A stretch of DNA of 58,010 bases, counting the filler, from Barthelona sp. PAP020 (taxonomy: Eukaryota), in the NCBI GenBank assembly GCA_040182905.1. It is 4 parts of 4 records of this genome, joined end to end, with 100 filler letters (N's around TTAATTAATTAA, not from the genome) between each part and the next. Parts side by side here need not be neighbours in the genome. Positions count along the whole stretch, not along the records: positions 9,957 to 26,844 come from JARQWU010000014.1; 3 more parts are not named here. One strand, 5' to 3'. This document shows positions 7,181 through 57,992 of the stretch, in pieces. Below the pieces are notes generated by a model. That model made no database searches, was not told where the DNA came from, and saw nothing but the letters and a program-made list of their open reading frames with translations. The position numbers and the translations under genes are program-made. The number at the start of each line of letters is the position of its first letter. The stretch's first letter is position 1.

Positions 7181-7861
7181 CTACCGTACTGTTTTCAGTT
7201 TTTTTGTTCTCTTATTAGAACTTGCTTTTTTATTATTGTCTTTCTTACTACTATTGTTAACCAATCGTGAAATTCCATTCTCAAAATTATAATTGATCCC
7301 ACTGGCTTCTATTAAATCTTGACGTTTTCTTTCTCTTTCAATCATTTTTTGAACTCTTTTCTTTCTTTCTGTTTGTGTTCTTTGTCTGTTATGAACTTCG
7401 CTATATTTTTGATTGTGATTTGCTGGATTATAAATATGATTGTTGTTGATAAACATAGAAGGATGAACATCTTTAGGATCCACCAATCTGCATTGTAATA
7501 AACGTCTGTGAATAAAATAACCATCCATTGTTTCTTGAACAATGGCTGCAACTTCAGGATGATCAAATTCAACAAAAGCATAATGTTTAGATCTACCAGT
7601 TTGCTTGTTTCTTGAAACCCTAACATTTTTGACATGACCGAATTGTTCAAAATATTCCTTTAATTGCAATTCAAAAAAACCATGAGGCAAATGCCCAATG
7701 TAAACAACTGTAGGACCTTTAACTTCATTGTTAATGGTCTTGTGTTCTTTTGGAATTGGTAATTCTTTGGTGTCAAGTTCAATATCGGAAACAATTGATT
7801 CATCTGAGAAAGATTCATTGTCAGAAAACATTTCAGCATCTGATAACTCAGAACCACTCAT
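7181..7861 (-). CDS. NIFK: Nucleolar RRM protein, Nop15/NIFK family, copy 2
   Basis: The RRM is near-identical to copy 1. The start is set at ATG 7861 (MSGSELSD) by homology to copy 1. Confidence 0.92.
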   Translation of the reverse strand: MSGSELSDAEMFSDNESFSDESIVSDIELDTKELPIPKEHKTINNEVKGPTVVYIGHLPHGFFELQLKEYFEQFGHVKNVRVSRNKQTGRSKHYAFVEFDHPEVAAIVQETMDGYFIHRRLLQCRLVDPKDVHPSMFINNNHIYNPANHNQKYSEVHNRQRTQTERKKRVQKMIERERKRQDLIEASGINYNFENGISRLVNNSSKKDNNKKASSNKRTKKLKTVR

Positions 7862-7931
7862 CAGTTTAATAATAATAAAAAGAAAGGAAAAGAAAAAACC
7901 AAATTTTTCTTTTGTTCTTTTAAACAAATAT

Positions 7932-8567
7932 ATGCAAAATAACTCTTCTGAAACAGCAAATCAATTAAAATTGGTTGTAGTTGGTGATGGTGCGGTATGA
8001 AAGTTGTAATATATATGAAAACTAACAGCGTAGGTAGGAAAAACATGTCTTCTCCACATGTATGCCAACAATCAATTCCCAGAAAGATATGATGCTACAA
8101 TTTTTGATAATTATGTTACAAAAGTTGAAGTTGATGGAGTTATCTATCGTTTAAGATTGTGGGATACTGCAGGACAAGAAACATTGGACAGATTAAGAGT
8201 TTTGTCTTATAAGAATGCTCATGTTGTTCTTATTTGTTTTGATACTAATTCTAGAGATAGTTATGAAAATGTTGCAACCAGATGGGCCCTTGAAGTTAGG
8301 CACAATTGTCCAGATGCTCCTATAATTCTTGTTGGAACTAAAATTGATTTGAGAACTGATCAAAATCTTGTAATTTCAATGGCTGAAGGTAATGAAAAGG
8401 CAAAGGAAATTGGAGCTTTAACTTATGTTGAATGTTCAGCTTTAAAATGCATTGGTGTAAAGAATGTTTTTGATGAAGCTATTGCTGCTGCTATTAATTT
8501 CACCACTGAAGGTACAAAGGAAGTTTCTGAAGTCCAACGTGATGAAGGATTATGTAGTTTCTTGTAA
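7932..8567 (+). CDS. Rho-family small GTPase, copy 2 (intron 7995-8033)
   Basis: Same motifs as copy 1; ends CSFL. The 39-nt intron GTATGA...ACTAACAGCGTAG is at the identical position. Confidence 0.95.
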
Positions 8568-8671
8568 TTTATATTTACTTTGACTTTTATGAATTTTTAA
8601 TGATGTTTAAATATATGTTATTGGAATTAAATTTGTAAATTCTTTTCAATTTTATTTTTTATTATTTTTTA

Positions 8672-9856
8672 ATGGAAACGATTGAAGTTGAATCTTTGAA
8701 AAGCACAAAAGTTGAATTAAAAAGCAAGTTAGATGAATCAGATGTGTTCTTGAAGTATGGTATTTATGCAAAGGAGAAAATTCCTCTTGATACCTCCATA
8801 TTGAGGGATACTTTCTTTTCAAAAATTCTTAAAAGTGGGTCTATTGACTTCTTTTGTGCACATTGTTTAAAAGGTAGAGCTGAAGAACAATTTTCACCAG
8901 ACGATTTTGAACACACGGGAGATAGATGTTCAGATTGTGGAATCACTTGTTTGAGTGAATTTATGAAATATCATGAAGAAGAATGTGAGTTACGTAAGTT
9001 GATTATTGATAAAATGGATGAAATTGAATATGATGTTGAATTAGCCAGAATGATATCTAAATTATTGATTAAACAAGTACTTCAAGACCCTGGATTGGAG
9101 ACTTTTGAGTTATTGCCTTGGGATTATCGTTCTAAATTATCACCACAAACCATTGAAATGTATGAGGTTACTGTAAATGGAATGATTGCTTTGGGGACTT
9201 TTTTGCCTGATGGTCATAGATTTAAGCCATTTTTGAACACAGAGAATTTATGGAAACTACTATTGCGAATTAATCGTTATTCTGATAACCTTTGGGATTT
9301 AAATTTTACAAATCCCAATACAGCTGTTGCATTTATGAATTTACGAGGTTTAGTTCGTCATTCTTGTTATCCTAACTGTGAATGGATTCAGCTCAATAGC
9401 GAAGAATATTGTTTGAGACCTATTAGAGAAATTCAAGCAGGAGAAGAAATAACTTTATGTTTGATTCCACATATGTTGGCAAAATTTCAAAGAATTCAGT
9501 TGCTCCAAACACATATGAATTTGGATTCTTGTAGCTGTTGTCGTTGCAGTGATTTAGAGTGGATGAACCGAGATCGTGAACTTTCTGGCATTAAATGTCA
9601 AGCAGTTGGTTGCGGCGGAGTGTTCTATTTCGATAATGGTAATGTCTTGTGCAATAAATGTGGCAACACTGCATCTGTTGAATATATTACTGATGTGGCA
9701 CATCACATTCATGAATTGTTGGACAAAGCTCAACGTCTTTCTCAATCTTCTGAGTTTATGCAAACTCAAGGTCATGCTGCTGCTATGGAGCTAAAGGATT
9801 ACTTGGATGAAAAAGTTCATTCCAGACACAAATTTCATCAGAATGTTGACGATTTG
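8672..9856 (+). CDS. SET and MYND domain (SMYD-like) protein, copy 2; 3' end lost at the contig linker
   Basis: GIYAKEKIP (SET-N), MYND cysteines, RHSCYPNC, RPIREIQAGEEITLC, post-SET CSCCRC, and a further C-x-C...CNKCG zinc motif. Confidence 0.88.
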
Positions 9857-9956
9857 NNNNNNNNNNNNNNNNNNNNNNNNNNNNNNNNNNNNNNNNNNNN
9901 TTAATTAATTAANNNNNNNNNNNNNNNNNNNNNNNNNNNNNNNNNNNNNNNNNNNN
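9857..9956. other. Artificial contig-join linker (N44-TTAATTAATTAA-N44)
   Basis: An identical 100-nt construct recurs at 26845-26944 and 46898-46997. The 12-mer gives stops in all six frames. Confidence 0.95.
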
Positions 9957-10073
9957 TTTATTTGTTTTGGGAATTTTGTTTTATTTCCCCTTTTAAACAC
10001 CACATTAACAAAATAACTCTCTATATTATTATAAAAAAAAATTAACATCCAATTTTATTTTTCATTCTTTTTC

Positions 10074-11093: not shown

Positions 11094-11243
11094 TTCAATA
11101 AATAGATCAATAAAGAACATAATTTTTATTTTATCTTGCACAATCTTGAATAAAAGAAAGAAAATTGAGATTCAAAATATTGAAAACCTTTATTCTCTTT
11201 TTTTTTAAACACGAAATTGTTTGTGTATGTGATATTCAGTTTC

Positions 11244-11295
11244 TTTTAGGATGAGTAACCACAGACCTGTTCTTAGGTCACTGACACCGGTGATT
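11244..11295 (+). ncRNA. Box C/D snoRNA, snR56/SNORD25-like (18S Gm guide); 3' end uncertain
   Basis: Box C AGGATGA 11248-54. CACAGACCTGTT 11260-71 is a 12-nt perfect complement of the conserved SSU sequence AACAGGUCUGUG. D'-like CTTA 11272-75; CTGA 11281-84. Confidence 0.75.
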
Positions 11296-11351
11296 TTTTT
11301 ATAATTTGATTATTCTTTGAATTTTCAAGAAAAAATTATTACCAACCGACC

Positions 11352-11392
11352 TGTGAGGATGAAACATTTCCACCACTCTTAGAAGCTGATTT
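11352..11392 (+). ncRNA. Second C/D motif pair (orphan snoRNA, or the 3' half of the preceding one)
   Basis: AGGATGA 11356-62 ... CTTA ... CTGA 11386-89, followed by a U-tract and then ACTAACATTGCAG. No target recognised. Confidence 0.45.
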
Positions 11393-11589
11393 TTTTCTAT
11401 TTTTTTTTCCAAAAATCGTGATTTTACTAACATTGCAGAAAAAAGAATTCCTTTTATCTACTCAGTATCTATATTTCAATCATAAATTCTTCTTTCATGG
11501 TTCCTTTTTGAATTTTTGGGGCAAAGTTTTGTTTTCTAAAAAAAATAAATTAATGTGAGGCTTTATCAAAAAACAGGATTTAAATTTTG

Positions 11590-14937: not shown

Positions 14938-16539
14938 ATGAATGTATTACCTGTATTCTTTTTACTAATATTATTATTTAAGGGATGTTTATCTGTTGAT
15001 AGTAATTTATATGAATCCATACAAAACAATCTTAAAAATATTAATAATTATGATTTTACTCAGAGTTTTTTTGAATTTTATGATAATATAACAGATATTT
15101 TAGCTAATAGTGCCAAAATATATTATTTAGATGAAAATTATAATGAAAATTGTGAAATACTTTTTGGAATTGAAGAAAAATTTAACAATACTGCAAATTG
15201 TGTAACAGGCTTTTTCAATGAACAGCATTGCAATTGCAATGGTATGACTTTAAATGTTGAGCATCCAACATGTTTTTCTATATCTGGTAATTTATTGTCA
15301 AAAGAGTCGAGAAATTTAGCTTGCAAAATGAAACCTTTAATGAACATAGGAAAATCACTGTTGACTTATTCAAACGACATTTTTCTTGTAAATATGGCAA
15401 TACACACTGGATTTGCTTGGTTTTTTCCTGGTATTCCGCCTGATCTTTCAAATAATATTGGTTCGGAGAATGCCCCATGTTTTTATCGGACTGGTATAGC
15501 AGAATCTTATCCATTATTTCAGCGAAATTGGTACGCATCTGCTGCAATCAATCCCAGAACTATTGTATTCATTTTTAAATGTTCTGAATTGATGGGAAAT
15601 TTTCGAAATTTAATGGTGGAAATGATCAATCACATGATGATTTTTCTTTCTCCTCAAGACAGAATTTTTGTTATTTTTGAGGCAAAACAAACATATGTTC
15701 TATTTAATAAACCAGTAAATGTAGAAGAAGATGTTAAAAGTTTGATTGTTTCAACGATGAAAACAATTGAATTTTCAGGTCTAAATTTTGAAACTATGGG
15801 TTTAAATATTGCTGAAAGTGTATTTTCTAAAGCTGAAAATAAATTTATAAATTGTGCGTCCTTCATATACATATTTTCTGATGATTTGCCACCTAAATCC
15901 ACAGAATTTTCTTCATTTTTCATTGAAAATAATATTCGTATTATTGCATTCATTTTAACTGATATAGTTAATTTAGTGTTACATAAATGGACATGTTTAA
16001 CAAATGGATTGAGTTTTAATGTACCAACTATTGAACGTTTTGAAAAAAATTTTATAACTGTTCATCAGTTGGCTAAGATTTCTGGAGATGCATCGAAAAC
16101 ATACTGGACTTCACCATATTATTTTTGGAAATCTGATTTGTTGATTTCAACAGCTTCTAAATCAGTGTTTATTGATGAAAAAATGATAGGAGTTGTTGGA
16201 TTTGATATCATATGGGATGAGAACAAAGTGAAATTTGAAAATATTACAAATTATGTTCAAGAAAAAATATGCTTGGCAAACACGAACAGTTTTGCTGAAA
16301 TGGAAAGTTTACGTGAAAAATCTTGTGTTGCAGATGCTGTTTCAGTAGGTAGTGTTTTTTTTTCTGATAATCTAGATAAGAATTATTCAGTTGAATATTT
16401 TCTTTTCTTTTTGAGTTGCTTTTTCATCATTATTGTCATAAGTTTTGGTTTAAAAAAAATTGAACAATTAAATAATGTTCCAAATGTTGCTCATATCAAG
16501 TGTTATGAATTTAGAAAACAACAACATGAAAATGATTAG
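14938..16539 (+). CDS. Type I membrane protein with VWA + Cache-like domains (Ca-channel alpha2delta/CACHD1-like)
   Basis: Signal peptide, RNWYASAAINPRTIVFIF (cf. RPWY..A.SPKD.VIL.D), YWTSPYY, GVVGFDI and a C-terminal hydrophobic helix. Confidence 0.7.
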   Translation: MNVLPVFFLLILLFKGCLSVDSNLYESIQNNLKNINNYDFTQSFFEFYDNITDILANSAKIYYLDENYNENCEILFGIEEKFNNTANCVTGFFNEQHCNCNGMTLNVEHPTCFSISGNLLSKESRNLACKMKPLMNIGKSLLTYSNDIFLVNMAIHTGFAWFFPGIPPDLSNNIGSENAPCFYRTGIAESYPLFQRNWYASAAINPRTIVFIFKCSELMGNFRNLMVEMINHMMIFLSPQDRIFVIFEAKQTYVLFNKPVNVEEDVKSLIVSTMKTIEFSGLNFETMGLNIAESVFSKAENKFINCASFIYIFSDDLPPKSTEFSSFFIENNIRIIAFILTDIVNLVLHKWTCLTNGLSFNVPTIERFEKNFITVHQLAKISGDASKTYWTSPYYFWKSDLLISTASKSVFIDEKMIGVVGFDIIWDENKVKFENITNYVQEKICLANTNSFAEMESLREKSCVADAVSVGSVFFSDNLDKNYSVEYFLFFLSCFFIIIVISFGLKKIEQLNNVPNVAHIKCYEFRKQQHEND

Positions 16540-16736: not shown

Positions 16737-16967
16737 TTTGTTCGAAGCGCTTTCCAAACTTTCCAAACTTGAGAACTGGCCCCTCCGGTGATTTGTAAAT
16801 AATATACTCTTATCTTTATTCATATCTGAAGGTGATATTGGGGAGGGGGTGGGGGAACCTCTCAGGCTTAACTCTTTAATTTCAAATGCTGTCCCGTGGT
16901 AAGGGCGTCCTATGCAGTGTATTAAAGTTTTGCGGTACTAATTGTTCAGAAGACCCTTAAGTCTCCC
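16737..16967. repeat. Dispersed ~230-nt structured non-coding element, copy A
   Basis: A GC-richer intergenic island sharing collinear blocks with 33088-33313: TTTCCAAA(A)CTTTCC, AATAATA.AC, ATCTTTATTC, GGAACCTCTC, GCTGTC, CTATG and TACTAATTG.TCA.AAGA. Confidence 0.75.
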
Positions 16968-26844: not shown

Positions 26845-26944
26845 NNNNNNNNNNNNNNNNNNNNNNNNNNNNNNNNNNNNNNNNNNNNTTAATTAATTAA
26901 NNNNNNNNNNNNNNNNNNNNNNNNNNNNNNNNNNNNNNNNNNNN
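26845..26944. other. Artificial contig-join linker
   Basis: N44-TTAATTAATTAA-N44. Confidence 0.95.
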
Positions 26945-28684: not shown

Positions 28685-28835
28685 GTTTCACAACTGGACC
28701 AAAATTTTCATTCTTGATGACCAAGATTCAATTGCAGCCACTCATTTTCTGTGGCTGAGATTTAATGAAATGAGTTTTCTGAGTTTACTTTTTTTGCAAA
28801 TATAAAAATATTTGTTTCACAACTGAACCAATAGA
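28685..28835. repeat. Repeat family B abutting a 367-N gap; homologous (inverted) to 57884-57992
   Basis: GTTTCACAACTG(G/A)ACCAA at 28685 and 28814 (129-nt spacing). AATGAGTTTTCTGAGTTTACTTT is the exact reverse complement of a stretch near the window end. Confidence 0.85.
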
Positions 28836-29246
28836 TATTAACCAAGGGAAAAATTAGAAACTGTTTTTTGATATTCTGACTGTCAGTTAAAATACAGGGT
28901 TTTTAATGATATTGAAATAATTTTATTTTGTTTATTCATATGCGTGGTGTTTCTTATGGTCATAACTGCAAATTTTTGGAAATTCAAATGTTCACACAAA
29001 CTTCTTGGAAAAAAATACCAAACTGAAAACATTTTTTAAAGAATTCCAATGTCTGCAAAAATTTATATCAAATCTTTACAAATTTGAAAAAGTTTTGTTG
29101 TAAACTGATTGTTCTTGACCATATTTGTCACAAACAGAGATTCAGTTTGATTACCACCAGCAGAACAAAAATCAAATCGAACTTGTAATGAAAAATGTGG
29201 GGAAATGAATAAAAAAAATGTGAAAACAGATTCCTTTATTTTTTTG

Positions 29247-30285: not shown

Positions 30286-31159
30286 TCATTTTTTCTGAAG
30301 AAATTCCTCCACTGTGTGTTGTTTTTTAAAATTAACACCTGCTGCACTTAATCTCTTCTTTAACGTAATGCGAGTAACACCAATAGCTTCTGCAATTTCA
30401 TCAATATTGCTACCATTACTTAACATTTCTTTAACTAACCCCCAGTCAATACCTTTCACAGGTCTTCCTCTACCGCGTGCTTGCAAAAGTTTTGGTGGCA
30501 TTTTAAGTGGCTCATCAATAGTATGTCGTACTTTTCTTTCAATAGGAAGGGAAACAGCAGAAGATGACGCGGTAAAACCATTAAAAATATCTTTTGAGTA
30601 AAAAAATAAATGTTTTAAATCTCTTTTGGTATCAGGTAAATATTGTGGGAGTCTAACATACAATTTTTGCAGTTTCGGTATCAAATCCAATTTAATTCCA
30701 AAACTAACTTGTGATCTATCGAATTCGTCAACAGAGAGAATAGTGTTAGCAACATTATTCAAATTGACTACAATATAATCATTGATATTATTGGTAAAAC
30801 AGCATTTAATCCCAAATTTTGTCGTAATTTCCACTTCATCTCCTCCAACATGAACTAAATACCGTTTGGGTAAATCAACAATGCCAAGAATTTTTGCAAC
30901 TTCAAATGAATTCTTCCAAAACAATTTAACATACAAACCCTTCACTAGTTGCCCAATATTATCAACGTATCTGAACGTTAAAAACATTTCTCGACTAATT
31001 ACGCACCATTTGGCTTCTTCAAATGACATTTCATGGATAGTATTTGCTTTCTAAAAATTAGTAAAGTTATCAATAGAACACTCAAACAATGTAGTTATTT
31101 GGTACAAAAATGTTTAAATTAGGAAGAAAAATACAATTTTCGGTGTGTTTCTCTTCCAT
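30286..31159 (-). CDS. Plus3-domain protein with C-terminal GRP + helix-turn-helix; intron 31051-31087
   Basis: ISRE.F......LVKGLYVKL...FEVAKILGI....KRYLV...NLNNVAN...DEF fits Plus3. The C-terminus is GRGRPVKGIDWGLVKEMLSNGSNIDEIAEAIGVTRITLKKRL. The upstream exon MEEKHT... joins in frame via a 37-nt GTTTGA...ACTAATTTTTAG intron. Confidence 0.72.
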
Positions 31160-33011: not shown

Positions 33012-33087
33012 TGTGTATAAAAGAATTTGTAATTTTTATTTTCGAAATATATCCTCAAAATTTTTTTTATAATTTTTTTGTTTTTCT

Positions 33088-33313
33088 TCTTGTACGAACG
33101 TTTTCCAAAACTTTCCCAAATCAGAGACCAGGAATCTCAGTTGATTAATCAATAATAAACCTTAATCTTTATTCTTTTCGTGGGGCCCAGAGTTCCAGAA
33201 AGGAACCTCTCTTTTTTGAGACCTACTCTTTCATAGGCTGTCATAGGAGAGCTACGCACTATGTGGGGTGTGAAATATTGCCTTACTAATTGCTCAAAAG
33301 AGTTTAACGCTCC
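33088..33313. repeat. Dispersed ~230-nt structured non-coding element, copy B
   Basis: Collinear homology with 16737-16967, in the same orientation. Confidence 0.75.
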
Positions 33314-33379
33314 GATATTTCCAAAATATTCAAAAATATCAGCCTTGTTAACCCTTTTTTTTTTGTGCGAAGAGCCAAA

Positions 33380-34150
33380 ATGAGCACATCAATTGTTAGA
33401 TTTTCTGTCAATAGAAAAAGAGAAACTGGATGTGGTTATGACCAACAAAAGATTCCTTTCCCTTTGAATAATTCAATTGGAATGAACGAATATTTAAACA
33501 TTATCAATGAAATTGATCAAAATATACCAATGCCAAACACAGCTTTTGTTCTTGCTGTTTTTTGTTTGATTATGTTTCTTTGCCCAACGACAATAGGTAT
33601 TTTTCTTGTTGCAGCACCCAAATTCGTTTTTGTTCCTGTCATTACAGATGTGTTATGCCTAATAATGTTGTTTTATAAGTTGCAAAAAAACAACAAAAAA
33701 TTTAGATTCAATTTATCTGAAAGTGTTTCCAGGTTAAATCGTGAATTTCATGGTAAATTATCAATTTCATTGCCTGATTTAGCTTTGTTAGACACTGGCG
33801 TTAAAAATTATGCAGATTTTTCACGTGATGAATTGTATTACAATATTCACGTTTATTTTGAACATAAACCAACTCAAATTCGACCAAATCAGATGCAACA
33901 AAAACAATTATATGTTGATCAACAGAATAATCAACAAATCAATCAATCTTATGTAAATCAATCTTTTAATCAACCAGTATCTCAACCAATATATCAACCG
34001 CATGTGAGCGAACTCAATCAACAACAAAATGAATACCAAATTCAAACCACTGATGAACCAAATGTTTCAACCAAAAACAATAGCGATTCAAATTATTCAT
34101 ATGATCCTTCTTCCAGTTATGACTTTGGATACACTCCAAATATTTATTAG
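33380..34150 (+). CDS. Two-TM protein with Q/N-rich tail (weakly Erf4/Golgin-A7-like N-terminus)
   Basis: ATG 33380; P.PL...I...EY..II.EI, then a hydrophobic hairpin and a low-complexity C-terminus. The family call is weak. Confidence 0.65.
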   Translation: MSTSIVRFSVNRKRETGCGYDQQKIPFPLNNSIGMNEYLNIINEIDQNIPMPNTAFVLAVFCLIMFLCPTTIGIFLVAAPKFVFVPVITDVLCLIMLFYKLQKNNKKFRFNLSESVSRLNREFHGKLSISLPDLALLDTGVKNYADFSRDELYYNIHVYFEHKPTQIRPNQMQQKQLYVDQQNNQQINQSYVNQSFNQPVSQPIYQPHVSELNQQQNEYQIQTTDEPNVSTKNNSDSNYSYDPSSSYDFGYTPNIY

Positions 34151-34721
34151 TTCTTTTACTTTGGTGTTTAGTGCAATTCTTTATTGTTGCTAATAATTTT
34201 TGGTTTCAAATTTTGAATAAAATACCATCTGGATTTTTTTATTAAAATGTCTTTTTCCTTTTGTTAAAAAAAAAAAGAAAAGAAATTGCAACTTTATAAA
34301 ACATACTACATATTTCCAGACATTCATCAAGTTTGAGCACTCAAGATGGCAATTCAAAATTCAAATAAATAAATAAATAAAACAATTGACGACATTTTGA
34401 ATTCAAATTCAAATTGTTAAATTGTTGATGATGAAAATTCGTGTCATACCTTTATTAAACAAATTGCATGTTTTAAATTTATTCACATAAATAAATGCAT
34501 GTTGATATTTGCTGAAAAGATTAAAAAAATGAAAAAAATGAAAAAACTGTTAGCTGAGAAAACGTTTCTCCAAATTTAAACTTGAAACGGTGGTACTGGT
34601 GACCAATATAAAAGAAACAGAATCATTGCTATTTGAATTTCGCATTACATACCTTAGCATTCATAAAACAAAATTTCGCAATCAAAAATTGTGGATTTTG
34701 AGAGACAAAAGTTTAATGAAA

Positions 34722-44890: not shown

Positions 44891-45323
44891 TGAAAAAAAT
44901 AGTTTTTCATTTTCCTCTTTTTTTAATGAATTTCCTTTTTTTTATTATTGAATCTTTGGAAATGTTGTGGGTCAATAGACAGATAAACAAATAAATAAAT
45001 CTTTATTAATTCTCTTTTTTTTGTTCTTTTGAAAGAAAATTTAAGCAATTAAAATAATTTTCTGCTACAATTTCCAAAAATTATGTTGTTAAGAAGAATA
45101 ATGATCTTCAGAAATATTTATTCCTTTCTTGGTCGGATTTATCAACAATAATTCATAAAATTTGTTCTTCAAATAATAATAATAAACAAATTGAATATAA
45201 ATAAACTGCGAATCAGTATCAAATTGAAGTTTCTTTGGAAATTATCCCCAAAAAAGAATTTTGATATTTTTTTTTTTGTTTTTTTTTTGTTCAAAAAATT
45301 GTATGTATTCTTGTGTTCTTCAT

Positions 45324-45386
45324 TTTTATGATGAATTTATGTCATAGTTATCAGATTTTTAATGATGACAACAACATAACTGATTT
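45324..45386 (+). ncRNA. Box C/D snoRNA 1 (LSU helix 69 guide)
   Basis: C ATGATGA 45328-34; guide GTCATAGTTA 45341-50, complementary to LSU UAACUAUGAC; D' CAGA; C' ATGATGA; D CTGA 45380-83. Confidence 0.85.
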
Positions 45387-45452
45387 TTTGAAATTTTCCT
45401 TTAATTGCCAAATTCTAACCTATTGTCAAGAAAGTTTTTATTTTGATCATTT

Positions 45453-45523
45453 TTGTATGATGAAAACAAGTCATAGTTTCTGAATTGTTCTTTGGAACAT
45501 GAAGACAATTTTTTTTCTGATAT
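45453..45523 (+). ncRNA. Box C/D snoRNA 2 (LSU helix 69 guide)
   Basis: C ATGATGA 45457-63; guide AGTCATAGTT 45469-78; D' CTGA; internal hairpin TGTTC/GAACA; C' ATGAAGA; D CTGA 45517-20. Confidence 0.87.
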
Positions 45524-45622
45524 TTTTTTTTAATTTTTTGTGAAAGTTTTCTAATTTTTCAGTTTTTTTCGTTTTTGTTTTTTTTATACATTTTTTTTTG
45601 AAAGGTTTGTACATGTGTCTTT

Positions 45623-45682
45623 ATCAATGAGGAAACTTATCCTACGTTATCTGTTTTATGATGATGAAAAGATTGCTGATTC
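45623..45682 (+). ncRNA. Box C/D snoRNA 3 (probable LSU guide)
   Basis: C-like ATGAGGA 45627-33; ACTTATCCTAC, complementary to the conserved LSU GUAG(G/A)AUAAGU; C' ATGATGA; D CTGA 45676-79. Confidence 0.7.
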
Positions 45683-45745
45683 TTTTTTTTTAATTTTTTA
45701 AACAGTTTTCTAATATTTAGTATGTTGCGAAAATCTATAATTTTG

Positions 45746-45817
45746 GAAGCTGTGATGGTGACTAGAGTCTCTTAGGAAAACTGTGATTAGAACTGCTGTT
45801 TAGCCCCACTGAGCTTC
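45746..45817 (+). ncRNA. Box C/D snoRNA 4, snR78/SNORD52-like (LSU Um guide)
   Basis: Terminal stem GAAGC/GCTTC; C GTGATGG; guide ACTAGAGTC, complementary to LSU GACUCUAGU; D' CTTA; C' GTGATTA; D CTGA 45809-12. The +5 rule lands on the U equivalent to yeast Um2421. Confidence 0.85.
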
Positions 45818-46043
45818 ATTTTTTAATCAATACATTTTAAAAACTCTAACAAATAGGAAGTATTTATTCAGTAGATAATTCTTTTATTGACAAAGAATTT
45901 CATTCAATCATAACTTTTCAATTTTGATAAACTTTCACGTTGAAATATATCGTTTTCAATTTTCTTTTTAATCTTTTTGTTTGTTTTTGTTGATTTGAAA
46001 ATAATAAAGCAAAAAAGAAAAATGCTAAAAAGTTTACATCAAA

Positions 46044-46897: not shown

Positions 46898-46997
46898 NNN
46901 NNNNNNNNNNNNNNNNNNNNNNNNNNNNNNNNNNNNNNNNNTTAATTAATTAANNNNNNNNNNNNNNNNNNNNNNNNNNNNNNNNNNNNNNNNNNNN
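46898..46997. other. Artificial contig-join linker
   Basis: N44-TTAATTAATTAA-N44. Confidence 0.95.
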
Positions 46998-57726: not shown

Positions 57727-57883
57727 GCCTTTAGTTTATGTTTTTTTAAGTACCATGTTGCATATTACAGCGTATTAGGAAGATTTGTACAATAGTAAAC
57801 ATTTTCCTTTTTTTTTTTTTTTTTTTTGAAGTATTGATTTATTTGAAAATCGATTTTACAAAGAACCATTAATCTTTAATCAA

Positions 57884-57992
57884 TTGGTCCATTTGTGAAC
57901 CAACTATATTTATTTGGTCCAGTTGTGAAACAACTATATTTATTTACAAAGAAAGTAAACTCAGAAAACTCATTCTAGCAAATTTCAGTCAA
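57884..57992. repeat. Repeat family B copy containing a 2 x 30-nt tandem duplication
   Basis: TTGGTCCA(T/G)TTGTGAA(C/A)CAACTATATTTAT at 57884 and 57914, followed by AAAGTAAACTCAGAAAACTCATT, shared with 28.7-28.8 kb. Confidence 0.85.

Follow-up and report, generated by a model that had tools for sequence, protein, structure and literature searches.

The 58-kb stretch of DNA from Barthelona sp. PAP020 analysed here (the window) is gene-dense. About 81% of it is coding and 19% non-coding, and the 37 of its 49 ORFs that were scanned against Pfam include genes for a kinesin, Ras-family GTPases, BRF1, Ku, Spc25 and an outer-dynein-arm docking protein. The best non-self matches of BRF1 are to Eukaryota sp. 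TZLM3-RCL and TZLM1-RC, at 39% identity and slightly ahead of other eukaryotes; the first of these is a Skoliomonas isolate according to the available part of PMC11316075. Judged from this one protein and from short introns whose branch point adjoins the 3' splice site, the host is probably a metamonad flagellate belonging or close to the clade of barthelonids and skoliomonads. Two related elements, copy A (16737-16967) and copy B (33085-33315), both referred to the + strand, lie outside ORFs in the non-coding part of the window.

Copies A and B are homologous. Their local alignment scores 183, which exceeds every one of 1000 dinucleotide shuffles (mean 72.9, s.d. 7.3, maximum 99), and identical nucleotides occupy 152 of the 229 aligned columns (66%), corresponding to a divergence of 34%. 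This comparison, which the original prediction had itself proposed as a check, bears out its description of the two copies as collinear homologues. Despite this divergence, the span between the predicted splice sites described below is retained at 213 and 209 nt with no truncation and no large indel, and the genes flanking A are unrelated to those flanking B. The portrayal of the copies as ORF-free, GC-richer intergenic islands also holds, with GC contents of 0.43 (A) and 0.40 (B) compared with 0.23 for intergenic DNA, and first and second rank among 608 non-coding windows of 120 nt. At the sites that vary between the copies, GC is 0.55 in A and 0.47 in B.

Several sequence features that had been described are likewise present in both copies, namely a T-rich tract upstream, a doublet of TTTCCAAA, whose pattern occurs at these two places only in the window, and the element TACTAATTG. 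Terminal inverted repeats and target-site duplications, already reported to be lacking, were seen neither by eye nor in the repeat lists inspected, which gave the 20 largest families of direct repeats and, out of 1246 inverted pairs, the 25 longest. The proposal of a dispersed, multi-copy family did not hold up, as just two copies were found in the 58-kb window searched. Smith-Waterman, nhmmer and a sequence-only Infernal model yielded no third copy there, and the next-best window match (E = 0.063) is a 48-nt AT-rich piece inside an ORF. The claim that short conserved blocks alternate with diverged sequence is true to a modest degree only; it is upheld by the number of runs (93 compared with 109.5 expected, p = 0.011) and not by the number of bases in runs of >=7 (p = 0.21).

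Repeats of other kinds were also recorded. Positions 1-1842 and 7229-9052 form an inverted segmental duplication of SET-domain, Ras-family and RRM genes, with arms that are 88-100% complementary and with 12 of 69 four-fold sites differing in Ras exon 2. A second repeat, at 28686-28860 and 57880-57991, sits by an assembly gap and by the window end; short GTTTCACAACTG units are found in both places, which share a 51-nt inverted match (84%) and may represent a small mobile element. The N-run gaps at 9857-9960, 26845-26944 and 46898-46997 carry a central TTAATTAATTAA filler, an artefact that yields false repeats.

Predicted coding introns of the host are 37-55 nt long, start with GTA(T/C) and carry a branch motif that is followed after 6-9 nt by AG. 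Scored with a splice-site matrix built from nine of these predicted introns, both copies exhibit intron-like signals at their ends (Table 1), a frame that the original prediction had overlooked. The branch-point-like TACTAAT, which is included in TACTAATTG, is the best match of its kind in A and in B (8.1 bits) and recurs in two of the nine predicted host introns. The 5' signal of B has the same letters as the 5' splice site of a predicted Ras-family intron at 1077 (- strand). That of A reaches 4.1 bits, compared with a host range of 5.6-9.2, and ranks third within its copy, where two internal sites score higher. GT(A/T)CGAA occurs five times in the window, counting both strands; two of these occurrences form the first conserved block of A and B and one is the host intron start. 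By a rough, post hoc estimate, the chance of finding a 5' site of the grade seen in A within the first 15 nt together with a branch point and AG within the last 45 nt is about 7e-4. Splice-like frames are not rare when loosely defined, because a loose intron pattern picks out 38 candidate spans in the non-coding DNA of the window, among which A and B are the most GC-rich.

Table 1 Features of copies A and B and of predicted non-coding introns elsewhere in the window.
Feature	Positions	Strand	Remarks
A, predicted spliceosomal intron	16740..16952	+	213 nt, or 210 nt with the AG at 16948-49; splice-like motifs, candidate RNA inside
A, 5' splice-site-like GTTCGAA	16740..16746	+	T at +3 departs from host GTA(T/C)
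A, doublet	16750..16767	+	exact 9-nt CTTTCCAAA twice; version in B imperfect
A, predicted arm 1	16768..16866	+	stems 16768-74/16860-66 and 16780-86/16842-48; inner hairpin 16810-18/16827-35
A, predicted arm 2	16874..16927	+	stem 16874-80/16921-27; inner GCTG/CAGT stem
A, branch-point-like TACTAAT with AG	16936..16952	+	AG at +7 and +10; host spacing 6-9
A, similarity past predicted 3' splice site	16953..16966	+	TTAA..CTCC
B, predicted spliceosomal intron	33092..33300	+	209 nt; paralogous candidate RNA inside
B, 5' site GTACGAA	33092..33098	+	8.8 bits, best in copy
B, homologue of arm 1	33123..33212	+	best fold of B itself differs: hairpin 33172-33205
B, homologue of arm 2	33229..33275	+	from alignment to A
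B, branch-point-like TACTAAT with AG	33284..33300	+	AG at +10, one base past host 6-9; next AG at +12
B, similarity past predicted 3' splice site	33301..33314	+	from alignment to A
Predicted non-coding intron	11225-11438	+	214 nt; one or two box C/D-like RNAs
Predicted non-coding intron	45301-45562	+	262 nt; two box sets, best E 0.032
Predicted non-coding intron	45720-45856	+	137 nt; snR78-like guide (E 1.4)

On these signals, A and B are likely introns that the spliceosome would remove from non-coding or 3'-UTR transcripts. The host transcript could be a read-through 3' UTR, because A, B and the 11.2-kb span listed in Table 1 each lie 80-200 nt downstream of a same-strand gene. For B, the stop codon of an ODAD1-like gene is 80 nt upstream and the next ATG is 79 nt downstream; the ORF that follows B (33380-34150, + strand) is an orphan, with neither a Pfam match nor a homologue at E<=0.001. 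The + strand orientation of both copies is drawn from the splice signals more than from the G-U pairs. Against the intron reading stands one off-consensus signal in each copy, a T at +3 in A and an AAG at +10 in B. Furthermore, similarity between the copies extends about 15-30 nt beyond the predicted 3' splice site, which this reading leaves unexplained. Two other constructions were rejected: a short internal intron starting from 16919/33268 would leave only some 18 nt before the branch motif and has a poor site in B, and in-frame stops rule out both the joining of a coding exon across B and a start of the IRES type.

The splice frame of A and B also surrounds box C/D-like RNAs at 11.2 kb and 45.3-45.9 kb, in spans of 137-262 nt. 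The first guide of the 11.2-kb span has the same sequence as the guide in the snR56 consensus of Rfam (E = 0.75), and about four box C/D-like RNAs cluster in the non-coding stretch at 45301-45856 (+ strand), at least three of them inside predicted introns. The Rfam matches of the three spans all fall below the gathering score and the RNAs are therefore given as predictions. This arrangement suggests that small RNAs are expressed from introns of non-coding or UTR transcripts in the host genome. For Giardia and Trichomonas, whose introns are few and short, intronic snoRNAs are judged highly unlikely in the accessible part of PMC3228867. An additional intron-like non-coding span of 141 nt, with a C-box-like motif, short stems and no useful Rfam match, lies just after BRF1 at 34512-34652 (- strand).

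Both copies had been described as structured elements whose stems are maintained by compensatory changes. Neither A nor B folds better than its shuffles on either strand, with z values of +2.50 (A) and -0.44 (B) for the + strand and +0.81 and +1.20 for the - strand. The sequence allows all of the quoted stems to be drawn, although the GGAATCTC/GAGTTCC pairing of B requires a bulge, and the stems quoted for A belong to its best fold. When the stems of A are forced on B, the folds reach -31 to -39.5 kcal/mol compared with a best of -50.2, a cost of 11-19 kcal/mol, and the pair probabilities are near 0. The further long stems that had been listed are not homologous, as different alignment columns are paired (16957-64 in A and 33293-302 in B).

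Blind covariation tests, in which the nulls kept mismatched columns as mismatches, were also non-significant, and the compensatory character of the stems is thus not upheld. Consensus folding over sampled alignments was equalled by 84 of the 90 nulls, a comparison that is somewhat conservative (alignment score 182 versus 170.5), and the shared-helix score was matched by 54-180 of 200 nulls on the + strand and 103-197 of 200 on the - strand; the A-side helix p-values from this second test are circular and were left out. For five helices that were picked in A and then examined in B, the sum gave p values of 0.27-0.93. The stem corresponding to CCCCTCC/GGAGGGG yielded p = 0.043 and 0.089 in B with a hand-anchored alignment and 0.44-0.63 with the automatic one, and a candidate pseudoknot between the loop of arm 2 and the 3' end gave uncorrected values of 0.035-0.10. 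No helix p-value survives correction for the number of helices tried, and RNAalifold produced weak, unrelated folds on either strand. Conserved structure in A and B is therefore unproven, not disproven, two sequences having little power. Within A, the stems of arm 1 have pair probabilities of 0.24, 0.88 and 0.76, and the arm contains the conserved TGATT, AATAATA, TCTTTATTC and GGAACCTCTC. The loop of arm 2 at 16900-05 could pair with 16954-59 to form the candidate pseudoknot, for which the counterpart in B is nominal.

The same splice signals, and the position of A and B 80-200 nt after a same-strand gene, could also come from an ordinary long UTR intron that was duplicated once, with pairing that merely shortens the distance between splice sites and with no product. 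Folded long introns of this type, including one in a 5' UTR, are described for diplomonads and parabasalids in the available part of PMC6679479. The long cis-introns of Giardia, Spironucleus and Trichomonas covered there resemble A and B in having a branch point near the 3' splice site, a length that stands out among introns of about 40 nt and a potential for pairing, and differ in that A and B lie outside coding sequence and form a homologous pair at unrelated loci. This explanation appears unlikely: with unrelated flanking genes the intron must have moved alone, it has stayed collinear and GC-rich compared with the 23% GC of other non-coding DNA, and its folding is no better than that of shuffles.

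The explanation that we favour, at roughly even chances, is that A and B are paralogous intron-hosted RNAs that are freed by splicing and probably serve as atypical guides of the snoRNA type. The guide role is the weakest step, and a doubtful one, because neither snoRNA box set is complete. According to this model, the + strand would be transcribed either by read-through from the upstream same-strand gene or as part of a short host RNA. A U2-type spliceosome would excise the intron by using GT at 16740 or 33092, the branch A of TACTAAT and AG at 16952 or 33300. The lariat would then be debranched and trimmed by exonucleases until the two predicted arms remain (in A, about 16768-16930), giving a stable RNA of about 160 nt that would bind protein and act in the resulting complex on rRNA or snRNA. 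Folding of the intron may assist splicing by bringing the splice sites nearer to each other, as is reported for the long introns of Giardia, Spironucleus and Trichomonas in the part of PMC6679479 cited above. The second copy would have arisen when the gene was duplicated and moved, a behaviour that PMC3511168 (in part) reports for intronic snoRNAs within genomes.

A search for snoRNA boxes gave partial sets. A C-like TGATT is located at 16788 in A and 33141 in B, and CTTA at 16809 and 33161, and the D-box motif CTGA is found once in A and is absent from B. The aligned ATAATA at 16799 and 33152 fits an H box (ANANNA) in which the surrounding hairpins lack support, and no ACA trinucleotide is present in either copy. 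These absences, along with the lack of a statistically supported shared fold, count against an intron-hosted RNA. A and B nevertheless share with intron-hosted snoRNAs, and with the box C/D-like genes of the window, a non-coding position, the order GT, branch point and AG, a span within 137-262 nt and a spacer of about 25-30 nt from GT to the first helix or box. They differ in having no complete C/D or H/ACA set and no recognizable guide, in their higher GC content and in conservation that spans the whole unit and continues past the AG. The two copies would thus resemble an intron-hosted snoRNA gene in how they work, yet we do not class them as one because CTGA is missing from B and ACA from both.

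Comparison with known RNA families gave no assignment. A search of the whole window against Rfam returned no match at E<=1, and each copy searched alone returned unrelated matches only, at E values of 5.3 (a weak snoR26 match in A) and 8.9. The covariance models of Rfam for small self-cleaving ribozymes and group II introns also failed to match either copy (group II at E<=10). We take the GGAA..CTC block and the 3' block to resemble CR-I and CR-V loosely. The shared-helix list contains no P4 helix from GGAACCTCTC to the 3' block that is common to A and B, and where B has a GAGAG loop the aligned loop of A differs. A GARAR pentaloop is a feature of RNase MRP RNA according to the available part of PMC13184271; relative to the RNase P/MRP RNAs treated there, A and B are similar in size, with a GARAR-type pentaloop in B alone, no P4 kept in both and no Rfam match. 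Within the reach of these tests, the original prediction of a non-coding RNA is supported to the extent of a + strand RNA that fits no known family, and its SINE-like or mobile, ribozyme and guide-RNA options gain no positive support.

Exact-pattern scans found 18, 0 and 0 matches in viral contigs, 3 in metagenome contigs and 1 in prokaryote genomes. The 18 viral and 3 metagenome loci were rejected as homologues, aligning to the copies at scores of 63-106 compared with 183 for A and B, and none of the 22 loci scored better than E = 3.8 with an A/B profile, so they were taken as chance matches. Searches with blastn returned nothing for B in the phage collection or for A in the plasmid collection, and a bacterial promoter scan, which is not applicable here, was at chance level.

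As discrete units with terminal splice signals at two loci that are not related, A and B could instead be copies of a mobile structured intron, either introner-like or derived from a group II intron, that the spliceosome takes out and that has spread by transposition or reverse splicing. Introners and introner-like elements are homologous intron-like sequences at unrelated sites. A hairpin of roughly 34 nt that directly precedes the branch region is also in keeping with such an origin; by eye we take it to be loosely similar to domain V of group II introns. A and B differ from introners in showing no terminal repeats, no target duplications, no insertion in a coding gene and no near-identical copies in the window. 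Both are intergenic, although elements that can be spliced out should be tolerable in DNA that is 81% coding (chance about 0.035). Neither has a group II match in Rfam, and at 34% divergence the window holds no young copy. No genetic partner was seen either: the original prediction had suggested looking for copies next to reverse transcriptase, transposase or TnpB ORFs, and none of these domains was detected in the 37 of 49 window ORFs scanned against Pfam. A mobile intron of this kind is unlikely, and a more specific version, in which A and B belong to a spliceosome-excised, pseudoknotted, group II-like mobile family that yields RNAs of about 210 nt, is very improbable. If the units were truly mobile and their density (2 in 58 kb) held genome-wide, hundreds of copies would be expected.

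The discrete unit with unrelated flanks may alternatively be a decayed, non-autonomous SINE- or MITE-like element in which the splice-like motifs occur by chance. This explanation accommodates the lack of covariation, the A-rich tract that ends the - strand and the GC content of the variable sites (0.55 and 0.47), which also fits AT-biased decay of a GC-rich ancestor. A tRNA-type internal promoter was not seen, nor were the terminal inverted repeats and target-site duplications that are hallmarks of such elements, features that old copies could lose. However, neither copy is truncated or has a large indel at 34% divergence, and the splice-like motifs are positioned exactly at the ends, leaving this origin rather improbable. 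Either a mobile intron or a decayed element should leave insertions in coding DNA, young copies, terminal repeats or a partner enzyme, and the fact that none of these was seen counts against both.

Similarity that reaches past the AG would be expected if A and B are stand-alone RNA genes, for example telomerase RNA paralogues. In these the doublet would be the template, and the core would be closed where the 3' end pairs with the 5' end and with the loop of arm 2. In A, the exact C/A-rich 9-mer doublet falls in a stretch predicted to be unpaired, and a possible pseudoknot can be drawn in both copies (p 0.035-0.10). The available part of PMC11316075 reports an unusual telomere repeat in one barthelonid, and that of PMC12133305 plant paralogues with different templates. 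The telomerase RNAs in the latter source are like A and B in size, in a short direct repeat near the 5' end, in a possible pseudoknot with a terminal helix and in the existence of paralogues, and differ in pseudoknot geometry and in lacking splice-like ends. The doublet is imperfect in B, TTTCC(C)AAA turns up often in the window (16 + 16 matches) and the terminal stem has a pair probability of 0.01 in A and 0.36 in B. Telomerase pseudoknots have a U-rich loop and an A-rich strand, and the candidate pseudoknot has neither by eye. With the splice-like ends also left unexplained, this possibility is slim. The 58-kb window contains no telomere.

A and B are a pair of paralogous non-coding units, and from their sequences they are most likely introns that would carry an RNA matching no known family. 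Together with the box C/D-like introns of the same window, they suggest that a probable free-living relative of Giardia and Trichomonas expresses small RNAs from dedicated non-coding introns, with one duplicated cargo, that of A and B, fitting no Rfam family. If this cargo is spliced out and stable, the two copies would constitute a new RNA family in the host lineage. Mobility would instead bear on the origins of introns, and a telomerase RNA on telomere maintenance in metamonads. No RNA studies of the host lineage were found in the literature searched; in the available part of the main text of the genome paper (PMC11316075), 'intron' occurs once and 'non-coding' never, and the supplements of that paper may hold repeat or RNA annotation.

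Two ORFs of the window carry weak matches to domains of other types. That at 30286-31029 (- strand) has a weak resolvase-type helix-turn-helix (Pfam HTH_7, E = 3.5e-05) and is probably preceded by another exon, separated from it by a predicted 55-nt intron at 31051-31105. The 533-amino-acid ORF at 14938-16539 (+ strand) weakly matches a PDC sensor domain of bacterial type (PF22673, E = 8.7e-07), which is unusual for a eukaryote, and has a hydrophobic stretch near its end.
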